Below, piece after piece: positions 12,232 through 30,971 of a stretch of 34,340 nt of DNA (position 1 is the stretch's first letter; each line of letters starts with the position of its first letter). The position numbers and the translations under genes are program-made. Origin of the DNA: an uncultured Bacteroidia bacterium (lineage in GTDB: Bacteria > Bacteroidota > Bacteroidia > Palsa-948); contig CAZCJN010000006.1 in assembly GCA_964498865.1 (NCBI GenBank), forward strand, positions 1 to 34,340, given 5' to 3'. Under the pieces are notes generated by a model. That model was given only the letters and a program-made list of their open reading frames with translations. It ran no database searches and had not been told where the DNA came from.

Positions 12232-14595
12232 ATGGAACAGAAACAGGAAATAGAAAGTTTTTATTATGTAAAAGTAGCCTTGCAAAAGGTAACCAAATAC
12301 TGGTATGTTTTTTTTATATCTGTAATACTGTTTTTTGGATTGGCCTTTGCTCTCAATTGGTATTCCCGTCCTATGTATGAAGTAGGTAGTGTGATTTTAA
12401 TTGATGGAAATCCTGACTCACGAGTGGCTGATCCTTCAGAAGAATTTATGAAATCATTTGCTATTTTTTCTCCTACAAGTGATATTAATAAAGAGATTCA
12501 AAAGATGAAGTCCTTAGAAATGATTTATAAAGCTCTTGAAAAGACCAATGCAAAAATAGGTTACCATGCTGTGATCAGTCAAGTAAAAAAAACAGAGTTA
12601 TACCATGATTCGCCATTTACCGTAGATATGGTAGAAAATCATTTACAACCGGTTGGAGTGTCATTTGAAATAAAACCAGAATCTCCAACACAATTTAGAT
12701 TACATGTTGAAGATGCTAAAGAGGTTGATCTGTATAATTATCTTACAAAAGAAACTCGAGGTATTGATGTTTTTTCTATAGATAAAATATATAACTATGG
12801 AGATACAGTAAAAGCTGATGAGTTTTGCTTTATTGTTACTGTTGATGCTGAGAGGCTGAAAAATTTTAAAGAAGATACAAAGTTTCTATTCGTATTTAAT
12901 AACCTGGATCAATTGAAATACCAATATAAAAACGAATTAAAAGTTGAGCAATTAGGCAAAGATATTTTAGCCATTACGGTAAAAATGAAAGTGCAGCATG
13001 TGCAAAAAGGAATTGACTTTATTAATGCACTTACAGCTGCTTATATGCAGAGAAACGTTGATAAAAAAAATTATTTAGCAGAAAAATCGATTGAATATAT
13101 CAATAGTCAGATAGGAATTATAGCCGATTCATTAACTGTGAATGAATCGGATCTGCAACAGTTCAGGTCGAGTAATAAGTTGATGGAGATAAAATCATTA
13201 TCCGACCAAACTATGAGAGGAGCTAATGAATTAGAAGGGCAGAAAGAAAAACTTGAAGCTAAAGCAAGATATTACTCCTACGTTTATAATAATCTTGATA
13301 ATGATCAGAATAATTCAAGCTTGCTGGTGCCTTCATCCATGGGGGTTGATGACCAATTGCTGACCGGTATTGTACAACAGTATATAAAATTTACCACTGA
13401 AAGGAATAATTTAATTCAGGATAAAAAAACATTAAGTCCATATTTTACAAGTTTAAATAATAAAATACAGGCTCAAAAGAAAACTCTTCTTGAAACATTA
13501 CAGTCTCAGATGACAGCTAATAATATACTGCTGGCATCAATCAGTAATCAGTTGGGAAGGGAAAACCAAAGATTGAGAGAGTTACCCAATACAGAAAGGA
13601 AACTAGTGCAGATAGAAAGAAAGCAGACATTGCATGATGATATATATAAATATATGCTCAGGAAAAAAGCAGAGGCTCAAATTGCAAAAGGTTCTAATTT
13701 ACCGGATAATGATATTATTGAGCCTGCTAAACTTACCCAGCCTACACCGGTATCACCTAATAAAATGGCAAATTACTTAGGAGCTTTAGTGCTTGGTTTT
13801 TTGTTTCCTTTTGGAATATTTGGTATAAAATCGTTATTAACTAATACTATCAGGGATGAGGAGATTCTTAAATTAATTACCGATGTGCCTTTTATAGGTG
13901 TAATACATAGAAGAAAAAATAATACTAAACAGTCTGCATTGCTTGAGTCGCCCCGATCACCTATAGCAGAATCAATAAGAACTGTTCGAACGAATGTAGA
14001 ATATGCTTTGGGAGATGAAAAAAATAAAGTCATCTTGTTTACCTCTTCAACTTCAGGAGAGGGGAAATCATTTTGTTCGTTAAACATAGCACATAGCTTT
14101 GCATTAACTAAGCGAAAAACTGTTTTGCTTGATTTTGATTTACGTAAACCCAATCAATATTTTCCATTTGAAACCAATAATAATCAAGGCATAACTTCTT
14201 TTTTAAATGGCAGTTGTATGGTAGACGATATCATTGTTTCTACCGATATTCCTAATCTTGATTTTATTCCTGTAGGTGATAGGTCGTCCGATTCATCAGA
14301 TATGATTGATTCAGATTTGACCGGTATGTTAATTAATAAGTTAAAGGAAAAATATGAGTATGTTATAATAGATACAGCTCCTATAGGATTAGTATGGGAG
14401 ACCTTCTTGCTTGCAAAGTATGCAGATATTAAAATATTTGTTGCGAGGGAAAATAAAACTTCTAAGTCCGGATTTTTGAAAACATTGACAGAGTTTCAGA
14501 ATAAGAAAATTAAGAATTTATATTGCCTGCTGAACGATGTGAGTATACCTGCTGCATTGTCAAAAAAACATTCACAGTATTTTACTAATGAATGA
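12232..14595 (+). CDS. wzc: polysaccharide co-polymerase / BY-kinase (Wzc/GumC-like chain-length regulator)
   Basis: Two TM helices flank a long coiled-coil-rich periplasmic domain. The C-terminal P-loop domain has Walker A TSGEGKS, Walker A' VLLDFDLRKP and Walker B VIIDTAPIG. Confidence 0.85.
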   Translation: MEQKQEIESFYYVKVALQKVTKYWYVFFISVILFFGLAFALNWYSRPMYEVGSVILIDGNPDSRVADPSEEFMKSFAIFSPTSDINKEIQKMKSLEMIYKALEKTNAKIGYHAVISQVKKTELYHDSPFTVDMVENHLQPVGVSFEIKPESPTQFRLHVEDAKEVDLYNYLTKETRGIDVFSIDKIYNYGDTVKADEFCFIVTVDAERLKNFKEDTKFLFVFNNLDQLKYQYKNELKVEQLGKDILAITVKMKVQHVQKGIDFINALTAAYMQRNVDKKNYLAEKSIEYINSQIGIIADSLTVNESDLQQFRSSNKLMEIKSLSDQTMRGANELEGQKEKLEAKARYYSYVYNNLDNDQNNSSLLVPSSMGVDDQLLTGIVQQYIKFTTERNNLIQDKKTLSPYFTSLNNKIQAQKKTLLETLQSQMTANNILLASISNQLGRENQRLRELPNTERKLVQIERKQTLHDDIYKYMLRKKAEAQIAKGSNLPDNDIIEPAKLTQPTPVSPNKMANYLGALVLGFLFPFGIFGIKSLLTNTIRDEEILKLITDVPFIGVIHRRKNNTKQSALLESPRSPIAESIRTVRTNVEYALGDEKNKVILFTSSTSGEGKSFCSLNIAHSFALTKRKTVLLDFDLRKPNQYFPFETNNNQGITSFLNGSCMVDDIIVSTDIPNLDFIPVGDRSSDSSDMIDSDLTGMLINKLKEKYEYVIIDTAPIGLVWETFLLAKYADIKIFVARENKTSKSGFLKTLTEFQNKKIKNLYCLLNDVSIPAALSKKHSQYFTNE

Positions 14596-14648: not shown

Positions 14649-16124
14649 ATGACAATAGATAAGCTTGCTTATGCCAGACAGTTTTTGCTATCACCTCTGC
14701 CGACTAATGAATTGCCGGATTGGAAGCATACAACGATAGGTATTTATAATATTTATTCTCATCCGTTTCTTGATGTCTCAAAATCTACTAACGGAGTTAT
14801 TGAAGTAGCATTGATTGGTTTTATTGTTAATCCATATAACCCGGAACAGACGAATATGGATATATTGAATGCAATAGCAGGAGATGTATCATTGTCAAGC
14901 ATTGCAGATAAACTGTATAATTATGCAGGACGATTTGTGTTGGTTGTGAAAAATGGTGATAAGTACTATATTTTTCATGATCCTTGTGGATTGAGATCTG
15001 TTTTCTATACTAAATATGAAGAAAAGATTTTCGCTGCATCTCAACCATTGTTGTTGAAGAAGGTTATTCCGTTACAAGAAGGAGCACGATATAAAAAATT
15101 TTATGCATCGTCTTATATAAAATCAGATATTGAATATTACCTTCCTACAGGGTGCTCTTTATTTGAGGGTGTGTACCAACTTACACCTAATCATTATTTG
15201 GATTTTAATTCTTTTTCTTCTGTACGTTACTGGCCTGTTAAGCAACTGCAGAAACTAAATGTGAAAGAAGCTGCTGAAAAGATAGGTGATTTACTGAGAA
15301 AAATAATGCTTGCATTTCATAAGAGATTTAAGCTTGCCTTGCCTATAACTGCCGGTTTCGACTCCAGGGTTGTATTGAGTGCTTGTAAACCCATAGCAAA
15401 CGATATCTTTTTTTATACCTTACAATACAGGGGGCTAAAGGATGATTCAGCAGACATTAAAGTACCGAGAAAGTTGTTGTCAAAACTTGGATTAAAACAT
15501 CATGTTATAGATTGCAGGAATAATGGTGTTATTGAGCCTGCTTTTGCTGCTATTTATAAAAACAACTCAGATATTTCACACTTAAACGATTGGGGATATA
15601 TTGCTTATGGCATGAAAGGGCAAATACCTCATGATAGAGTTGTAATTAAAGGAAACTGTGCTGAAATAGCTCGATGTGCTTATTATATGTCGGGTAAGAA
15701 GGAAGAGATACAAAATGCTAATCAGATATTAAGCATGGAGCCGGGCTGGAATCAACATGAATTTATTGTGGAAAGTATTTCCAATTGGTTGAAAGATATA
15801 AAAAAAATAGAAAATAATTTTGGATACGATGTGGTGGATATGTTTTATTGGGAACAACGTCTTGGTAATTGGCAAGCCCAAAGCCAATTGGAATGGGATA
15901 TTGTTCAGGAAGCAATAACACCCTTTAATCACCGTGAGTTATTGGATATAGGTTTAGGCGTAGACAATAAATATAAATGCAAACCACATTTTTATCTTTT
16001 TCCTATGATAGCAGAATATCTTTGGAAAGAAACTCTATCGGAACCCATTAACCCACGCCCGTTTTACCATAAGTTTAAAGTATTGATGGAAATAATAGTT
16101 AAGCAGCTGACTGTAAGAAGGTAG
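14649..16124 (+). CDS. asparagine-synthase-family ATP-dependent amide ligase lacking the Cys nucleophile (degenerate glutaminase domain)
   Basis: Aligns by eye with the canonical AsnB at 25619. AGRFVLVVKNGDKYYIFHDPCGLRSVFYT...IFAASQ matches NGDFSFVIYDVQEKVFFGARDRFGVKPFYY...YFASE. The PP-loop position reads ITAGFDSR where the canonical protein has LSGGMDSS. The N-terminus is MTIDK, not MCG. Confidence 0.6.
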   Translation: MTIDKLAYARQFLLSPLPTNELPDWKHTTIGIYNIYSHPFLDVSKSTNGVIEVALIGFIVNPYNPEQTNMDILNAIAGDVSLSSIADKLYNYAGRFVLVVKNGDKYYIFHDPCGLRSVFYTKYEEKIFAASQPLLLKKVIPLQEGARYKKFYASSYIKSDIEYYLPTGCSLFEGVYQLTPNHYLDFNSFSSVRYWPVKQLQKLNVKEAAEKIGDLLRKIMLAFHKRFKLALPITAGFDSRVVLSACKPIANDIFFYTLQYRGLKDDSADIKVPRKLLSKLGLKHHVIDCRNNGVIEPAFAAIYKNNSDISHLNDWGYIAYGMKGQIPHDRVVIKGNCAEIARCAYYMSGKKEEIQNANQILSMEPGWNQHEFIVESISNWLKDIKKIENNFGYDVVDMFYWEQRLGNWQAQSQLEWDIVQEAITPFNHRELLDIGLGVDNKYKCKPHFYLFPMIAEYLWKETLSEPINPRPFYHKFKVLMEIIVKQLTVRR

Positions 16125-16179
16125 TAAGCCATAAGCTCTATTTGGCGATATTTGCACAATTAAATTTGCTTTGTTTAAC

Positions 16180-17517
16180 ATGATTTTTAAAAAATATTTT
16201 GCCAATACACATACTAGGTCAAAAAAGGCAATAAAAAATATTGCCAGCGCATTTGTAATAAAAGGTGTCAGCATTGCGATTAATCTGGCACTAGTTCCAC
16301 TTACAATAAGTTATTTAAATCCTACCAAATATGGTATTTGGCTTACTATTAGCTCAATTTTAGGATGGGTTGATTTTTTTGACATTGGACTTGGTCATGG
16401 ATTAAGAAATAAGTTAGCTGAATCAGTGGCTGAGGGAAATATGAAAAAAGCAAAAGCATATGTGAGTACGGCATATATATCGGTATCTATACTTTGTGCT
16501 TTTCTTTTCGGGATATTTTTAATTATAAATGAATTCATTGATTGGAATGCAGTGTTGAATGTTCCGGAGAATATGGATGAAGACATTAAAACAATTTCAT
16601 TTATTGTGTTTTTTATGTTCTCTATGAGATTTATACTTCAACTGATAAATAGTATATTTTTAGGATACCAGGAATCTGCAAAGGTTTCTTTTAATGTTGC
16701 ACTAGGCAACCTATTAGTTTTAATTGGTATTTTTTTAGTAACGCATTTTTCGCATTCCTCTTTGTTGTATGTTGCATTTTTGATTTCTGTAGTACCTGTG
16801 CTTGTTTTACTTGGAGTTAACATATTTTATTTTTCCACTAAGCTAAAAACGATATCTCCAAGCTTTAAAAGTTTTGATTATAATTCATTAAAAAATATAC
16901 TTCATCTTGGGGTTAAATTTTTTATTATTCAGATTAGTTTATTGATTTTATTTCAAACAAGTAATTTATTGATAAGTCGATATTTCTCTCCTGATTTGGT
17001 TACCTCTTATAATATTGCATTTAAGTATTTCGGTGTCATTACTATGGTTTTTAACATTATAATATCTCCTTACTGGTCTGCCTATACCGAAGCGTATGTT
17101 AAACAAGATTATGCATGGATGAGAAGATCACTTACGCAATTATTAAGAATATGGGGTGGGCTTTCTGTCGTGGCAGTGATCATGTTATTTGCATCTAACT
17201 TTATGTATCATTTATGGATTGGTGATAAAGTAAAAATAGATTTTTCTATTTCGTTGTTTATGATGTTCTATGTTGTACTCACATGCTTTGGAGATGTATA
17301 CATACGATTTCTGAATGGTGTAGGTAATGTACGTCCTCAGATGATCGTGAACCTTATCGGGATGGTGCTGTATATACCTATGTCTTATTTATTAGCAGTC
17401 AGATGGGGTATGGGTGTTTCTGGAATTATTTTATCAATTATCATATGCAACTCTTATGGAATTCTTATTGCACCATTTCAAGTAAGAAAAATTTTGAATA
17501 AACATTTACCGGTTTAA
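16180..17517 (+). CDS. wzx: Wzx-type oligosaccharide flippase (MOP superfamily)
   Basis: About 445 aa with roughly 12 predicted TM helices, typical polysaccharide-biosynthesis-protein composition, and a position inside the locus. The ATG at 16180 is preferred over the track's TTG at 16171. Confidence 0.75.
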   Translation: MIFKKYFANTHTRSKKAIKNIASAFVIKGVSIAINLALVPLTISYLNPTKYGIWLTISSILGWVDFFDIGLGHGLRNKLAESVAEGNMKKAKAYVSTAYISVSILCAFLFGIFLIINEFIDWNAVLNVPENMDEDIKTISFIVFFMFSMRFILQLINSIFLGYQESAKVSFNVALGNLLVLIGIFLVTHFSHSSLLYVAFLISVVPVLVLLGVNIFYFSTKLKTISPSFKSFDYNSLKNILHLGVKFFIIQISLLILFQTSNLLISRYFSPDLVTSYNIAFKYFGVITMVFNIIISPYWSAYTEAYVKQDYAWMRRSLTQLLRIWGGLSVVAVIMLFASNFMYHLWIGDKVKIDFSISLFMMFYVVLTCFGDVYIRFLNGVGNVRPQMIVNLIGMVLYIPMSYLLAVRWGMGVSGIILSIIICNSYGILIAPFQVRKILNKHLPV

Positions 17518-22535: not shown

Positions 22536-23549
22536 ATGTCAGAAAAAACTACGGGCATACAGATTAATGAAAACCCCGATAAGAAAAAGTGGGATGATTT
22601 TGTATTAAACCATCCATTGGGAAATATATTTCAAACATCCTTAATATACGATGTATATAAAAAAACACCTTATAATGATGCTGGTGTAATTGCCTTAGAA
22701 GATGCTGATAAAAATATAAAGGGTATTTTGGTATATACCCTCATTTTTGAGCCTGGAATTAAAAGTCGTTTCTCAACACGTTCAATCATTAATGGCGGAC
22801 CTATTATCAGCGATAATAATAGCCAGTTCACTAAACAGATCCTTGACTATTACAACGAGAAGATTAAAAAAACAAAGGTTATATATACTGAAGTAAGAAA
22901 TCTATTTGATGTACAACTGCTGAATGAACCCTTTTTAAAATGTGGCTTTTCTCACATTGAACACATGACTATTCATAATGATCTTACTTTGCCTGTTGAG
23001 GAAATGAAAAAAGCATTACACAGGGGTAGGGCATCTAATATTAAAAGAGCGCTTAATAAAAACATGCAAATAAGGCAGCTTGTAACCAAAGATGAAATAA
23101 TGCAGGGGCATGACCTTATTGCTAAAACATATGAAAGAATTAATTTGCCATCTCCTGACCCTAACTTGTTTTTAAATACAGCTGAAATTTTAAAAGATAA
23201 ATGCCGCATTGTAGGAGCTTTTGCAGATGATAAACTTATTGGCTGCAGAGTTTATTTGATCTATAAAGAGTCAATGTATGACTGGTATGCAGCTATTGAT
23301 ATGAAGTATTCTAATTACCAGGTAGCTGATCTTATGCCATGGCATAATATGCTATGGGGAAAAGAAAATGGAATTAAAGTATATGATTTTGCCGGTGCAG
23401 GTAAACCAACTCAGGATTATTCCGTTAGAGATTATAAATTGAAGTTTGGAGGTAAGTTATTGTCTTTTGGAAGGTATTATTATGTGCATAAACCATTATT
23501 ATATAATGTGGGAAAATTAGGAATGAAAGTTTATAAGTATATAAGATAG
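22536..23549 (+). CDS. FemAB-family / double-GNAT (Acetyltransf_6-like) acyl- or aminoacyl-transferase
   Basis: 337 aa. C-terminal signature YDFAGAG...YSVRDYKLKFGGKLLSFG resembles the FemAB-family Y-x-F-K-x-x-F-G-G motif. The size fits a two-GNAT-lobe protein without the coiled-coil insertion. The start is 2 nt after the DUF354-A stop. Confidence 0.6.
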   Translation: MSEKTTGIQINENPDKKKWDDFVLNHPLGNIFQTSLIYDVYKKTPYNDAGVIALEDADKNIKGILVYTLIFEPGIKSRFSTRSIINGGPIISDNNSQFTKQILDYYNEKIKKTKVIYTEVRNLFDVQLLNEPFLKCGFSHIEHMTIHNDLTLPVEEMKKALHRGRASNIKRALNKNMQIRQLVTKDEIMQGHDLIAKTYERINLPSPDPNLFLNTAEILKDKCRIVGAFADDKLIGCRVYLIYKESMYDWYAAIDMKYSNYQVADLMPWHNMLWGKENGIKVYDFAGAGKPTQDYSVRDYKLKFGGKLLSFGRYYYVHKPLLYNVGKLGMKVYKYIR

Positions 23550-24680: not shown

Positions 24681-25475
24681 ATGAGAGACTTTACTCTTAT
24701 TTCCTATGAACACTTGCTTACTACATTTAAGCAAAAGGGATATTCATTTTTTACGTTCGAGGAATATTTGCTGACTAAACCCGCTGGTAAAGTTGTTATT
24801 TTAAGGCATGATGTAGATGATCTTCCGGGTAATTCTTTAAACACCGCAAAGATTGAAAATAGATTGGGAATTAAAGGAGTGTATTATTTCCGAATTGTAA
24901 AACAAAGCAACCACCCTGAGATTATAAAAGCTATTGCTGCATTAGGACATGAAATAGGCTATCATTATGAAGATCTTACATTAGCATGGGGAAATACAGA
25001 GAAAGCTATTTCTAACTTTAAGAAGAACCTTGAATATTTCCGCACTTATTATCCTGTTAAAACAATATGTATGCACGGAAGCCCAATGAGTACGTGGGAT
25101 AATAAAGATGTATGGAAAAAATATTCCTATAAAGATTTTGGAATTATTGGAGAACCTTATTATGATATAGACTTTAAAGTTTTTTGTTATTTAACAGATA
25201 CCGGCAGGAGATGGAATGGAGGACAAGTGAGCGTAAGGGATAAGGTTGTTTCATCCTATAATTTTAATTTTGAGACTACATTAAACATTACAGAGAATAT
25301 ACAGAAACTGCCTGACAAGATAATGATAACAGTTCATCCACAACGTTGGTCAGATAACTGGTTCATATGGACTAAAGAATTAATCCTTCAGAATGTTAAA
25401 AATGTAGTTAAACGCCTTATAGCATCTCCTAAGGCTGGTATGACTTCATTACTTACTTATTTTAATATGGTTTGA
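24681..25475 (+). CDS. polysaccharide deacetylase-like (CE4-related) protein
   Basis: VVILRHDVDD, GIKGVYYF and GHEIGYHYE follow the same HDVD...G-H-E-I-G-x-H pattern as 20598-21425. The two are otherwise only distantly similar. Confidence 0.5.
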   Translation: MRDFTLISYEHLLTTFKQKGYSFFTFEEYLLTKPAGKVVILRHDVDDLPGNSLNTAKIENRLGIKGVYYFRIVKQSNHPEIIKAIAALGHEIGYHYEDLTLAWGNTEKAISNFKKNLEYFRTYYPVKTICMHGSPMSTWDNKDVWKKYSYKDFGIIGEPYYDIDFKVFCYLTDTGRRWNGGQVSVRDKVVSSYNFNFETTLNITENIQKLPDKIMITVHPQRWSDNWFIWTKELILQNVKNVVKRLIASPKAGMTSLLTYFNMV

Positions 25476-25618: not shown

Positions 25619-27445
25619 ATGTGTGGCATTGCCGGTATAGTTAATTTATCTGAACGACCCGTTACAATGGACGATATTTCCGGTATGCTTAAGACCATTA
25701 AACATCGGGGGCCGGATGATGAAGGAACTTATTTCAAAGATAATATTGGTATCGGACAAGTCAGGTTAAGTATTATAGATCTTTCATCTGCAGGACATCA
25801 ACCCATGTTTAGTAATGAAAACAGGTACAGCATTGTTTTTAATGGAGAGATATATAACTACCTGGAGTTAAAGGAAGTGTTAAAGGATAAATATAGTTTT
25901 AAAACTAAAAGTGATACTGAAGTTATATTGGCAGCTTATTCCGTTTGGGGAGAGGATTGTTTATCGAAGTTTAATGGAGATTTTTCTTTTGTTATTTACG
26001 ATGTTCAGGAAAAAGTATTTTTTGGTGCCCGTGATCGTTTTGGAGTAAAACCATTCTACTATCATCAAAATCAAACAGGATTCTATTTTGCTTCTGAAAT
26101 AAAAGCATTATTACCTAAAGTAGCGAACGTAGAGCCCAATAATAAGTCGATATTTGAATACTTGGTTTATAATCGAACCGATCAATCACATGAAACATTT
26201 TTTAAAGATATTTTTAAGTTAAAGCATGGTCATTGTTTTACTATCAAGAATGCCAAGGTAAATTTTAAACAATGGTATAACCTTCCCAACCAAGTAAAAT
26301 ATCCTACTCCTTTAACACCCAAAGAGTTTAGAGAAGAAATTAAAAAATCAGTAGCTCTTCGTTTGCGTAGTGATGTACCGGTTGGCGTTTGTTTGAGTGG
26401 AGGTATGGATTCTTCTACCTTAACCTCGGTGATGTATAATGACTTTTCAGCAAAGGAATTACAAACATTTTCGGCAATATATGAACGAGGAACCTGGGCA
26501 GATGAAAGTCCCTATGTATATGCATTTAAGGATAAGCTCAAGCACATGCATACCATCACTCCAACAGCAGATACTTTTTATAATGAGTTTATAGATTTTA
26601 TAGTTTCTCAAGGCGAACCTATCCCCGGAGTAAGTCCCTATGCACAGTATAAGGTAATGCAATTAGCTAAGGGAAATGTGGTGGTTACCTTGGACGGACA
26701 GGGGGCCGATGAAATGCTAGGTGGGTATCCATACTTGTATGGAAGCTACTTTAAAGAGTTACTTACCAACTTTAAATTTATTACTTTGTTGAAGGAGGCT
26801 ATAGGATATTATAAAAACAATCCTTCGAAAGATGCCTATACCTATTTCGTTTACTACATGCTGCCCATAAGTTTAAAAGGTTATGCAAGTAGTAAGAAAT
26901 TTGGAAGTGTAAGTACAGAGTTTTACAATCGTTATCAAAAAGAATCAACCATATCTGCAGATTTTTATAATCCGAAATCATTACATGAATTCTTTCTACA
27001 GCATTTTGAACATAAATTAGAACATTTATTGAAGTGGGATGATCTCAACTCTATGCGCTTCTCTATAGAATCAAGAGTTCCGTTTCTAGATCACAACCTG
27101 GTAGAAAAAGCTTTATCTCTTCCTGCTAATCTTACACATAAGGGCGGGGTGAGTAAATATATCTTAAGAGAGTCGGTGAAAGATATATTGCCTGAAAAAA
27201 TATACAACAGAAAAGATAAAAAGGGTTTTGAGACTCCTTCGGATGAATGGTTTAGGACAACTCGGTTTCAGAAATATATTACAGATATGTTGAATTCTGA
27301 GAAATTTAAAAATCGCGGGTATTTTAATGTACAGGATTGTAAAAACAAATATCAAAGCCACTTAGAAAAGAAAGGAAATCACTCGAAAGATATTTGGAAA
27401 TGGATAAATCTGGAAGTATGGTTCCAAAAATTTATAGATAAATAA
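25619..27445 (+). CDS. asnB: asparagine synthase (glutamine-hydrolysing) family amidotransferase
   Basis: Ntn glutaminase start MCGIAGI, then HRGPDD, NGEIYNY and ARDRFGVKPFYY. Synthetase PP-loop CLSGGMDSS. Confidence 0.9.
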   Translation: MCGIAGIVNLSERPVTMDDISGMLKTIKHRGPDDEGTYFKDNIGIGQVRLSIIDLSSAGHQPMFSNENRYSIVFNGEIYNYLELKEVLKDKYSFKTKSDTEVILAAYSVWGEDCLSKFNGDFSFVIYDVQEKVFFGARDRFGVKPFYYHQNQTGFYFASEIKALLPKVANVEPNNKSIFEYLVYNRTDQSHETFFKDIFKLKHGHCFTIKNAKVNFKQWYNLPNQVKYPTPLTPKEFREEIKKSVALRLRSDVPVGVCLSGGMDSSTLTSVMYNDFSAKELQTFSAIYERGTWADESPYVYAFKDKLKHMHTITPTADTFYNEFIDFIVSQGEPIPGVSPYAQYKVMQLAKGNVVVTLDGQGADEMLGGYPYLYGSYFKELLTNFKFITLLKEAIGYYKNNPSKDAYTYFVYYMLPISLKGYASSKKFGSVSTEFYNRYQKESTISADFYNPKSLHEFFLQHFEHKLEHLLKWDDLNSMRFSIESRVPFLDHNLVEKALSLPANLTHKGGVSKYILRESVKDILPEKIYNRKDKKGFETPSDEWFRTTRFQKYITDMLNSEKFKNRGYFNVQDCKNKYQSHLEKKGNHSKDIWKWINLEVWFQKFIDK

Positions 27446-29939: not shown

Positions 29940-29957
29940 TACATAAATACAATTTTG

Positions 29958-30971
29958 ATGAAAAAGGTACTATCTATATTTTACTTCTGTTTAACACTTT
30001 TAGGTACAGCTATTTTATTTGAACTTATATTGCATTTTGGTGGTATTATGACTCCTATTTTAACCATTGACCCAAACAAAGGGGAACGTTATATGCCTAA
30101 TAAAATGTGCTGTTCAATTTTTAATTATGAAGGATTTGGCCTGGCAAAAACAAATTCTGCCGGCTGGTTTGGAAATGATCCTAATAGATGGGATTCTTCT
30201 GCTACTTCATTAGCGATATTGGGCAATAGTTTTATTCCTGCCCGGCAGGTATTTTACAGGCATAATTTTTTAGCAATAACAGAAGAACTCTTTCAAAATA
30301 ATAATAAAAATGTACGTTTTTACAATTTTGGAAAAGAATCAATGCCCTTGCGTGAATCATTGTATATAAAAGAAGAGATAGATGCGACCTACCACCCTGA
30401 TTATTTTATTGTTTTTATAAATGAACGAAGTTTAGGAAACGAAGGAAGGTATATTCCTTATTATGAATTAGCGGGAGATTCGTTAAAATTAAATGATAGT
30501 TTTAAATATTCTTCTTTTGTAAAAAAATATCAAAAAATTAGCCTTCTTAATCAATCATCTCTTCTTTTCTTAATATATCGAGTTAAAAATAATCTTTCTG
30601 ATTTTTGGAAAATAGTTCTTGATAAATTTTATCCGAATTATGATGAAAATATTGAAGAAGGAGTAGTCAACCGACCAGTAGATAGGGTAGATGAAGCAAT
30701 TATAAAGAAATTTGACCAAGATAGAAGAGTGATTTTTTTATTTGATTTAGATTCTTCAAAAGCACAAATGGTACAATCATATATTAGTAACTCACCTGTT
30801 ATTAATGTACACCCTGCTTTAATGAAAATGCATAAAGAAACAGGTGTAGATCCTTATTATTGGCCTATAACTAATCAAAAAGGACATTGGAATTACGAAG
30901 CACATAGAGTCATTGCCAGAGAGTTTTCAAATGAAATTAATAGTGTTATTTTTACTACAAGTAAGAAATAG
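29958..30971 (+). CDS. membrane-anchored hypothetical protein; possible DltD/SGNH-like partner of the MBOAT
   Basis: Single N-terminal TM helix. AILGNSF is a candidate SGNH block I (GDS-like) and KGHWNYEAHRVIAREF a candidate block V. It lies immediately downstream of the MBOAT, as DltD and AlgJ/X do. The call rests on weak motifs only. The ATG at 29958 is preferred over the TTG at 29955. Confidence 0.35.
   Translation: MKKVLSIFYFCLTLLGTAILFELILHFGGIMTPILTIDPNKGERYMPNKMCCSIFNYEGFGLAKTNSAGWFGNDPNRWDSSATSLAILGNSFIPARQVFYRHNFLAITEELFQNNNKNVRFYNFGKESMPLRESLYIKEEIDATYHPDYFIVFINERSLGNEGRYIPYYELAGDSLKLNDSFKYSSFVKKYQKISLLNQSSLLFLIYRVKNNLSDFWKIVLDKFYPNYDENIEEGVVNRPVDRVDEAIIKKFDQDRRVIFLFDLDSSKAQMVQSYISNSPVINVHPALMKMHKETGVDPYYWPITNQKGHWNYEAHRVIAREFSNEINSVIFTTSKK

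Follow-up and report, generated by a model that had tools for sequence, protein, structure and literature searches.

Results

The FAM Gene and Its Locus

Our analysis concerns a divergent relative of the glutamine-dependent asparagine synthetase AsnB, encoded in a polysaccharide locus of an uncultured Bacteroidia bacterium (assembly GCA_964498865.1, contig CAZCJN010000006.1). The stretch examined, referred to below as the window, is the entire 34,340-nucleotide contig; the assembly totals 2.5 Mb, is 93% complete, and contains one copy of the family. We use FAM as a label for the protein, an AsnB-superfamily member lacking the N-terminal cysteine nucleophile (Cys-less), and for its family. Profile comparisons and a predicted structure identify FAM as a genuine, very divergent two-domain member of the superfamily, about equally distant from each solved branch. 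Based on the chemistry of the superfamily and on gene context, we propose that FAM is a glutamine-independent amide ligase acting on a glycan, a reading to which we assign a probability of about 0.5. The gene and its landmarks are as follows.

12232..14595, plus strand: Wzc-like chain-length regulator/BY-kinase, upstream neighbor (Pfam GNVR and AAA_31), with a 53-bp gap to FAM
14649..16124, plus strand: FAM coding sequence, an open reading frame (ORF) of 491 residues with the N terminus MTIDK; AlphaFold2 model with a predicted local distance difference test score (pLDDT) of 92.7
16171..17517, plus strand: Wzx-type flippase, downstream neighbor (Pfam Polysacc_synt/MatE), after a 46-bp gap
25619..27445, plus strand: canonical glutamine-dependent AsnB, a separate enzyme used as comparator (MCG start; GATase_7, E 1.5e-44; Asn_synthase, E 3.3e-69; TIGR01536, 438.8 bits, over the cut-off)

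The remaining genes of the locus are also on the plus strand. They comprise an initiating sugar transferase, Wza, and Wzc, then a family 2 glycosyltransferase (GT2), Wzy, and a second GT2; a DUF2334-like protein, DUF354, a FemAB-like GNAT (22536-23549), a second DUF354, one ORF without assignment, and the canonical AsnB, 9.5 kb downstream of FAM; and, in the last part, AT3, MBOAT, and a polysaccharide deacetylase.

A TAA codon lies in frame 5 codons 5' of the FAM ATG, and in a six-frame search of the genome the open frame spans only 496 codons. A longer N terminus is therefore impossible, which rules out an MCG start supplied from further upstream. The initial annotation of this DNA had described a protein starting MTIDK, without an N-terminal cysteine, between Wzc and Wzx; both statements stand, with FAM placed in one co-oriented, operon-like run. 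The protein has no signal peptide and no membrane segment.

Relationship to the AsnB Superfamily

Curated sequence models recognize FAM weakly. Pfam Asn_synthase (PF00733) matches residues 234-339 below threshold (E 0.047; 13.8 bits, cut-off 21), and the Pfam search returned no GATase_7 match. NCBIfam TIGR01536 covers residues 96-338 with E 9.3e-11 and 41.4 bits, under its curated cut-off of 267.1; the same weak match is seen in 32 of 32 aligned relatives, and no other curated model spans them. Two to three of the 32 also give weak NCBIfam matches (E 1e-5 to 9e-4) to macrolactam or lasso-peptide cyclases, which would be in line with FAM being such a cyclase. We consider this extremely unlikely, given that NF033535 and NF033561 score far under cut-off (18 bits versus 300) and that genes for a precursor peptide, a B-type protease, and a RiPP recognition element (RRE) were not found in the window or in related loci.

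Profile alignments with hhalign connect FAM to the canonical AsnB of the window. The local alignment (E 5e-5) pairs only residues 87-246 with 113-272 and places TAGFDS on SGGMDS, and the global alignment with deeper profiles (E 1.5e-5, probability 57%) places IGFIVN on NGEIYN. When the family profile was run against solved structures, only marginal matches came up (PurF, E 0.02; NadE, E 0.1), and the homology is therefore taken from the NCBIfam match, the hhalign alignments, and the fold search.

For the latter, an AlphaFold2 model was computed from 32 relatives (pLDDT 92.7; predicted template modeling score, 0.91). Foldseek matches the model to beta-lactam synthetase (beta-LS) with E 1e-15 and also to carbapenam synthetase (CarA), E. 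coli AsnB, human ASNS, and TsnB9, all with E values from 1e-15 to 1e-11 and each over ~500 columns. In structural superpositions with VIA-align, TsnB9, CarA, AsnB, and beta-LS are tied at Z 22-23 with root-mean-square deviations of 3.6-4.0 Å, and the range across 7ylz, 1q15, 1ct9, 1mc1, and 6gq3 is Z 19-23, with 371-415 residues aligned. Single-domain proteins follow at Z 7.5-9, with PurF and GlmS matching the N-terminal domain and NAD synthetase, LarE, and GMP synthetase the C-terminal domain. The initial annotation had aligned FAM by eye with both AsnB domains. TIGR01536, hhalign, Foldseek, and VIA-align all bear out that alignment and rule out a by-eye artefact, and profile alignment recovers both of the motif pairings that had been read, TAGFDS with SGGMDS and IGFIVN with NGEIYN.

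A Glutaminase-Like Domain without a Nucleophile

14649..15248, plus strand: class-II N-terminal nucleophile (Ntn) glutaminase-like domain, residues 1-200, predicted to be catalytically dead (VIA-align places model residues 10-197 on GlmS 1-227, and also on PurF N-terminal domains; glutamine-pocket positions are replaced)
14676..14681, plus strand: Arg10-Gln11 at the structural Cys1 position (model residue 10 pairs with residue 1 of 1ct9, 6gq3, 1ecf, and 1xff)

The nucleophile of an Ntn hydrolase must be a Cys, Ser, or Thr with a free N terminus. In superpositions with six independent class-II amidotransferase structures, among them AsnB, ASNS, PurF, and GlmS (the 1ct9, 6gq3, 1ecf, and 1xff set), the alignment opens with model residue 10 paired to residue 1, the catalytic Cys1. 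The first strand is therefore present, and FAM is not merely a late-starting protein; a leader of ~10 residues (family median, 11) precedes that strand. As position 10 offers no such residue, glutamine hydrolysis by FAM is excluded as judged from sequence and model, and the earlier statement that the glutaminase nucleophile had been lost holds, with Arg10 at the Cys1 position and the pocket residues replaced.

Conservation was assessed in 215 relatives with 28-55% identity to FAM of the window. The strand carries a conserved (F/Y)-R-R-Q-F motif (R10, 85%; Q11, 93%), and one of the 215 proteins has a Cys at position 2. The glutamine pocket of E. coli AsnB, which we take to consist of R49, N74, E76, and D98, is occupied in FAM by T29, I56, F58, and N69 in the low-probability global alignment. 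From the Asn-Gly-Glu motif of AsnB only the glycine persists, as G57, which is 100% conserved. This residue belongs to a set of invariant positions peculiar to the FAM N-terminal domain (G57, G94, R95, D111, R116, N181, H182, and R193), a pattern that argues for a retained use of the domain and not for mere decay.

The Predicted Synthetase Domain

15261..16121, plus strand: PP-loop ATP pyrophosphatase (synthetase) domain, residues 205-491 (VIA-align places residues ~200-470 on the NAD synthetase, LarE, and GMP synthetase ATP pyrophosphatase domains, Z 7.5-8.3, and also on the AsnB, beta-LS, and CarA synthetase domains)
15348..15368, plus strand: PP-loop variant T234-A-G-F-D-S-R240, on SGGMDS of the window AsnB by hhalign
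15648..15686, plus strand: K334-GNCAEIARCAYY-346, counterpart of the AsnB nucleotide/Mg loop ('SGEGSDE..GGY'), placed on 'DGQGADE..GGY' in the global hhalign alignment, in which the counterpart of E339 is AsnB D351 or E352
15849..15899, plus strand: W401-E402...E415-W-D417 motif, with E402 present in 215 of 215 relatives and on 'WD' of the window AsnB in the global alignment
15975..15977, plus strand: Lys443, candidate stand-in for the AsnB/beta-LS catalytic Lys, suggested by family conservation

Across the family the PP-loop reads [TS][ASG]GxD[ST]R, and G236, D238, and R240 are each 100% conserved. The difference from AsnB that the initial annotation had pointed out, TAGFDS in place of SGGMDS, is thus a real and family-wide variant. 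Its conservation suggests that ATP pyrophosphatase chemistry is probably retained. Further conserved positions in the domain are D269 (99%), G335 (94%), E339 (90%), W380 (99%), W401 (95%), E402 (100%), E/D421 (97%), P425 (98%), R429 (99%), R443 (96%; Lys in the window), and N468 (93%). E402 presumably corresponds to D384 of E. coli AsnB and E382 of beta-LS. With G335, E339, and the PP-loop all conserved, FAM appears to combine a dead glutaminase domain with a retained ATP/Mg site.

The catalytic lysine, which we take to be K443 in beta-LS and K449 in AsnB, lies in a loop that in FAM holds one near-invariant basic residue a few positions upstream, Arg or Lys at position 443, the closest of its kind. 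This position is Arg in 96% of the 215 relatives and Lys in FAM of the window, the Lys being found in one aligned sequence alone.

One may ask whether FAM is an enzyme at all, or a non-catalytic protein that scaffolds or regulates either the canonical AsnB or the assembly machinery. A dead glutaminase site, the missing counterpart of the catalytic lysine, and an intact second AsnB in the locus are what a pseudoenzyme would predict. It would not predict the complete conservation of G236, D238, R240, and E402 or a PP-loop pattern that persists in 215 relatives, the most distant of them 28% identical, and most family loci lack a canonical AsnB near FAM; we therefore regard a pseudoenzyme as very unlikely.

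A Fe-S or other metal site formed by Cys113, Cys289, Cys337, and Cys343 was considered and rejected. These residues are invariant in 32 close relatives, yet fall to 41-64% in the 215.

An Unnamed, Widespread Family

No naming Pfam or NCBIfam model exists for the family. A word-indexed search returned 348 FAM homologs of 470-540 residues, all called 'hypothetical' and nearly all lacking Pfam domains, and an exhaustive hidden Markov model search returned 6777 clusters at 50% identity with E<=1e-3, 1770 of them at E<=1e-30. In the ESM Atlas, FAM falls in unnamed clusters of 52-413 members. Relatives are encoded at 157 loci in contigs from one genome per species, distributed over Bacteroidota, Chloroflexota, Fibrobacterota, Acidobacteriota, Actinomycetota, Desulfobacterota, Nitrospirota, Pseudomonadota, Cyanobacteria, and Methanomicrobiales; a tblastn search of phage records gave no match. 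Newly delimited here is a clade that is large, unnamed, and sharply conserved, with its own signature, consisting of the RRQF leader strand, TAGxDSR, WE...E.D, and EPINP.

FAM is also found fused to other domains, namely an N-terminal 2H phosphoesterase (two cases), a C-terminal PAS domain (one), and a C-terminal methyltransferase (one). The LigT-like 2H phosphoesterase fusions are P0217 (L096:4582-6807) and P0248 (L097:8001-10175); the former adjoins two Acetyltransf_6 (FemAB-like) genes, and the window locus likewise has a FemAB-like gene. At three unrelated loci (L008:10001-13204, L080, and L092), FAM paralogs of ~500 residues each form tandem pairs, and at L008 a flippase comes after the pair.

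Gene Neighborhoods

To describe the genomic context, ORFs were called in 84 loci, the resulting 1250 proteins were clustered, and recurrent clusters were annotated; counts refer to 60 non-redundant loci with enough flanking sequence. At least two recognized glycan-assembly genes lie within 6 kb of FAM in 32 of the 60, and at least one glycosyltransferase in 35 of 60. Among 102 immediate neighbors, 17 are GT2, 10 are GT1/GT4, and 4 are Wzx. The association of FAM with glycosyltransferases and flippases is documented by these data, though it is not universal.

Individual loci repeat the arrangement seen in the window. The order Wzc-FAM-Wzx-GT2-Wzy-GT2 recurs in two Flavobacteriales loci (L001 and L002) and in a Bacteroidia locus (L049), and in both Flavobacteriales loci the block of DUF354, FemAB, and AsnB genes is also present downstream. 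In Mariniphaga the order is Wzx-GT2-FAM-GT4, and in a metagenomic locus Wzx comes after two tandem FAM copies, a UDP-sugar dehydrogenase gene lying 4 kb upstream. A haloarchaeal megaplasmid of Natrinema thermotolerans (L101; CP031304.1, 435239-436798) encodes a full-length homolog of 28% identity that begins one base past the stop codon of a flippase gene, in a locus that also holds glycosyltransferases and dTDP-rhamnose genes.

The E. coli plasmid pCE1537-B (L100; NZ_MT162140.1, 46652-48997) carries a kps-type capsule locus with a 781-residue 'asparagine synthase-related protein'. The gene order is wecB and wecC (UDP-ManNAcA synthesis), one small ORF, the 781-residue protein, and GT4. The C-terminal 445 residues of this protein are a clear, though distant, FAM member (hhalign probability 99.9%, E 8e-35; SGGLDSR PP-loop; FYWEHRMG), and its first ~300 residues have no Pfam match. 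A megablast search of 5,426 complete E. coli genomes gave no match to this gene.

A separate arrangement is found inside glycan loci of Fibrobacterota (L073, L076, L077, L081-L085, and L091). There FAM is directly followed, at about 11.5-16 kb of each locus, by glutamyl-tRNA reductase, a class-III aminotransferase at some loci, a 540-residue protein without a Pfam match, aminolevulinate dehydratase, GT4, and an amine-oxidase-type flavoprotein. By analogy with the aminolevulinate-derived C5N unit that MoeH5 attaches to moenomycin, this gene set could specify an aminolevulinate-derived decoration; alternatively, it may be a haem operon that has come to lie in a glycan locus.

In Kiritimatiellae (L003/L018; JAQUPZ010000001.1), a 46%-identical member lies among glycoside hydrolases (GH95, GH123, and a BNR sialidase-like protein). 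No glycan-synthesis genes are nearby, and the family is therefore not confined to biosynthetic loci.

Discussion

Our analyses of FAM revealed a two-domain AsnB fold with a constrained PP-loop and acidic residues and with the ammonia-making function lost, for which a glutamine-independent amide synthetase is the most economical reading. To our knowledge, all characterized AsnB-fold enzymes (AsnB, beta-LS, CarA, TsnB9, and the lasso cyclases) activate a carboxylate by adenylation in the PP-loop domain and let a nitrogen nucleophile displace AMP, so that a C-N bond forms. We propose the following model. FAM would be a soluble AsnB-superfamily protein of the cytoplasm that works without glutamine, with Mg-ATP bound by the C-terminal domain via T234-R240 and E339. 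A carboxylate would be adenylated with release of pyrophosphate, and the acyl-adenylate would be attacked by an amine, either free ammonia or an amino compound, yielding an amide and AMP; Glu402 may serve as a base and Arg/Lys443 as a transition-state stabilizer. The N-terminal domain would keep the Ntn fold and produce no ammonia, with Arg10 in the place of Cys1, buried behind the leader. Its clade-specific invariant residues R10, Q11, H38, R95, D111, R116, N181, and R193 suggest that this domain may now aid substrate binding.

What is the likely target in this locus? The position of FAM, co-oriented between Wzc and Wzx, makes a repeat-unit sugar the most likely substrate, and the need for ATP, together with the absence of a signal peptide and of a membrane segment, would place its action in the cytoplasm, ahead of the flippase step. 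The target may thus be a carboxylate-bearing sugar of the repeat unit, linked to a nucleotide or to undecaprenyl diphosphate and modified before flipping. The initial annotation had specified a uronic acid. The wecB-wecC genes next to FAM on pCE1537-B and the analogy to MoeH5 speak for that part of the claim, which remains weak in light of a locus that holds no dehydrogenase and of the small number of family loci that have one; a uronic acid is, in our estimate, a doubtful assignment.

Several observations weigh against the proposed action on a glycan carboxylate. Residue equivalences outside the PP-loop depend on a global profile alignment of low probability (57%), and in that alignment no Lys of FAM is paired with the catalytic Lys of AsnB and beta-LS. 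No gene for a carboxylate-bearing sugar, including UDP-sugar dehydrogenase, was found in the window, and across the family no more than 8 of the 60 loci encode a UDP-sugar 6-dehydrogenase within 10 kb of FAM; in the same genome, UDP-sugar dehydrogenase matches are located on other contigs. There is no universal partner gene, as beyond generic GT2 no cluster occurs in more than about one third of the loci. No recognized glycan gene is present in 19 of 60 loci, an upper bound given that singleton ORFs were left out of annotation. The copies of Streptomyces sp. L7 are outside glycan loci, beside genes for a GNAT, a glyoxalase, a FAD oxidase, and a LysR regulator, and those of Nostoc and Kiritimatiellae are solitary and likewise outside such loci.

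These last copies, and the roughly one third of family loci without recognized glycan genes, are what one would expect if FAM were an amide or lactam synthetase for a soluble small molecule, such as an amino acid or another metabolite, with the product perhaps attached to a sugar later. The solved Cys-less members, beta-LS and CarA, use small molecules, and the glutamyl-tRNA reductase, class-III aminotransferase, and aminolevulinate dehydratase genes that follow FAM in Fibrobacterota encode aminolevulinate-type small-molecule enzymes. In the window and in closer relatives, however, FAM is found among export, flippase, and glycosyltransferase genes, and small-molecule pathway genes are absent from the window; we judge a soluble substrate unlikely.

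The missing link to uronic acids would also be accounted for if FAM adenylated the oxygen of a carbonyl group that is not a carboxylate, for example in converting an N-acetyl to an acetamidino group (WbpG/PseA type) or in acting on a ureido group, with free ammonia. The oxygens of amide and ureido groups are also among those that the PP-loop ATPase class activates, and N-acetyl sugars occur in nearly all such loci. That FAM has the two-domain AsnB fold, whose known members all activate carboxylates, speaks against this possibility, as does the absence of a match to the NCBIfam N-acetyl sugar amidotransferase model even at E<=1; nor was a HisH/HisF-like ammonia supplier found in the window. We consider such a reaction improbable, though somewhat less so than a pseudoenzyme or a peptide cyclase.

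Returning to the proposed amide ligase, two groups of relatives, one Cys-less and one Cys-containing, can be compared with it. Beta-LS (1jgt/1mbz) and CarA (1q15) have the same two-domain AsnB fold, with a Cys-less N-terminal domain and a PP-loop domain, and they carry out glutamine-free carboxylate adenylation and C-N bond formation, as we propose for FAM. Identity to FAM is only 11-16%, and these enzymes form intramolecular beta-lactams in antibiotic clusters, using SGGLDSS and a catalytic Lys. Unlike them, FAM has TAGFDSR, no aligned Lys, the invariant residues R10, Q11, R95, R193, E402, and R443, and a glycan-locus context. E. coli AsnB and the uronic acid amidotransferases of the WbpS-WbtH type, represented here by the protein encoded at 25619-27445, share with FAM the fold, the domain order, and the position of the PP-loop. 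They possess Cys1, a glutamine pocket of the NGEIYN type, an SGGxDS loop, and passing scores for TIGR01536/PF00733, whereas FAM fails in all four respects.

The closest functional model is MoeH5 of Streptomyces ghanaensis/viridosporus, an AsnB-superfamily protein whose gene adjoins a glycosyltransferase gene, here compared with FAM by description only. On the lipid-linked pentasaccharide of moenomycin, this AsnB-like enzyme turns the galacturonic carboxyl group into an amide, the amine being NH3, Gly, Ser, Cys, Ala, or C5N, a unit derived from aminolevulinate (PMC8778134). In the record of Streptomyces sp. L7, the surroundings of the FAM copies do not resemble a moenomycin cluster, and orthology to MoeH5 was not obtained by that route. 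Since MoeH5 exists, the idea of a Cys-less AsnB-fold amide synthetase, including one acting on a glycan, is already known in kind.

Enzymes of unrelated folds perform comparable reactions. VpsH adds glycine to a uronic acid of the Vibrio cholerae polysaccharide VPS at the stage of the undecaprenyl-diphosphate-linked disaccharide, before further extension (PMC13463779), and ATP-grasp enzymes likewise link amines to uronic acid carboxyl groups of surface glycans (PMC11800397, PMC13419641). VpsH (ANL/CapK-like), Cj1438-type enzymes, and TupA-like ATP-grasp amidoligases attach amino acids or amino alcohols to such carboxyl groups and are analogs of FAM in function only. The VPS glycine ligase was set aside, as it is VpsH, with its unrelated fold. 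In the literature, we found no usable report of a characterized Cys-less AsnB-like enzyme in polysaccharide loci and none of the serine-adding enzyme of E. coli K40. The initial annotation had called the enzymology of such amide formation sparsely characterized, a fair description when the precedents are MoeH5, VpsH, and the ATP-grasp ligases.

A broader conjecture, and one we advance with considerable reserve, is that the FAM clade as a whole represents a general 'glycan carboxylate-amine ligase' of bacteria and archaea. Its N-terminal domain might have been rebuilt, through R10, Q11, R95, and R193, to bind an amine donor other than ammonia or a diphosphate carrier, and amino acids or aminolevulinate-type units might be placed on lipid-linked repeat units before flipping.

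Amide decorations, such as carboxamides and amino-acid amides of uronic acids, alter the charge and antigenicity of surface polysaccharides and their recognition by phages and enzymes, and only a few of the enzymes responsible are known, from three unrelated folds. A reaction for FAM would annotate many glycan loci together, as thousands of members are now called 'hypothetical'. If the proposed activity is correct, a glutamine-independent branch of the AsnB superfamily would operate in primary cell-surface biosynthesis and not in antibiotic pathways. The value of the present work would lie in the definition of a family and in substrate discovery, and not in a new principle.

Two further ORFs of the locus, at 24681-25475 (264 residues) and 29955-30971 (338 residues), gave nothing in Pfam at E<=0.001. 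The syntenic Flavobacteriales locus L001 has conserved the first of them, as a gene for 250 residues ahead of AsnB.

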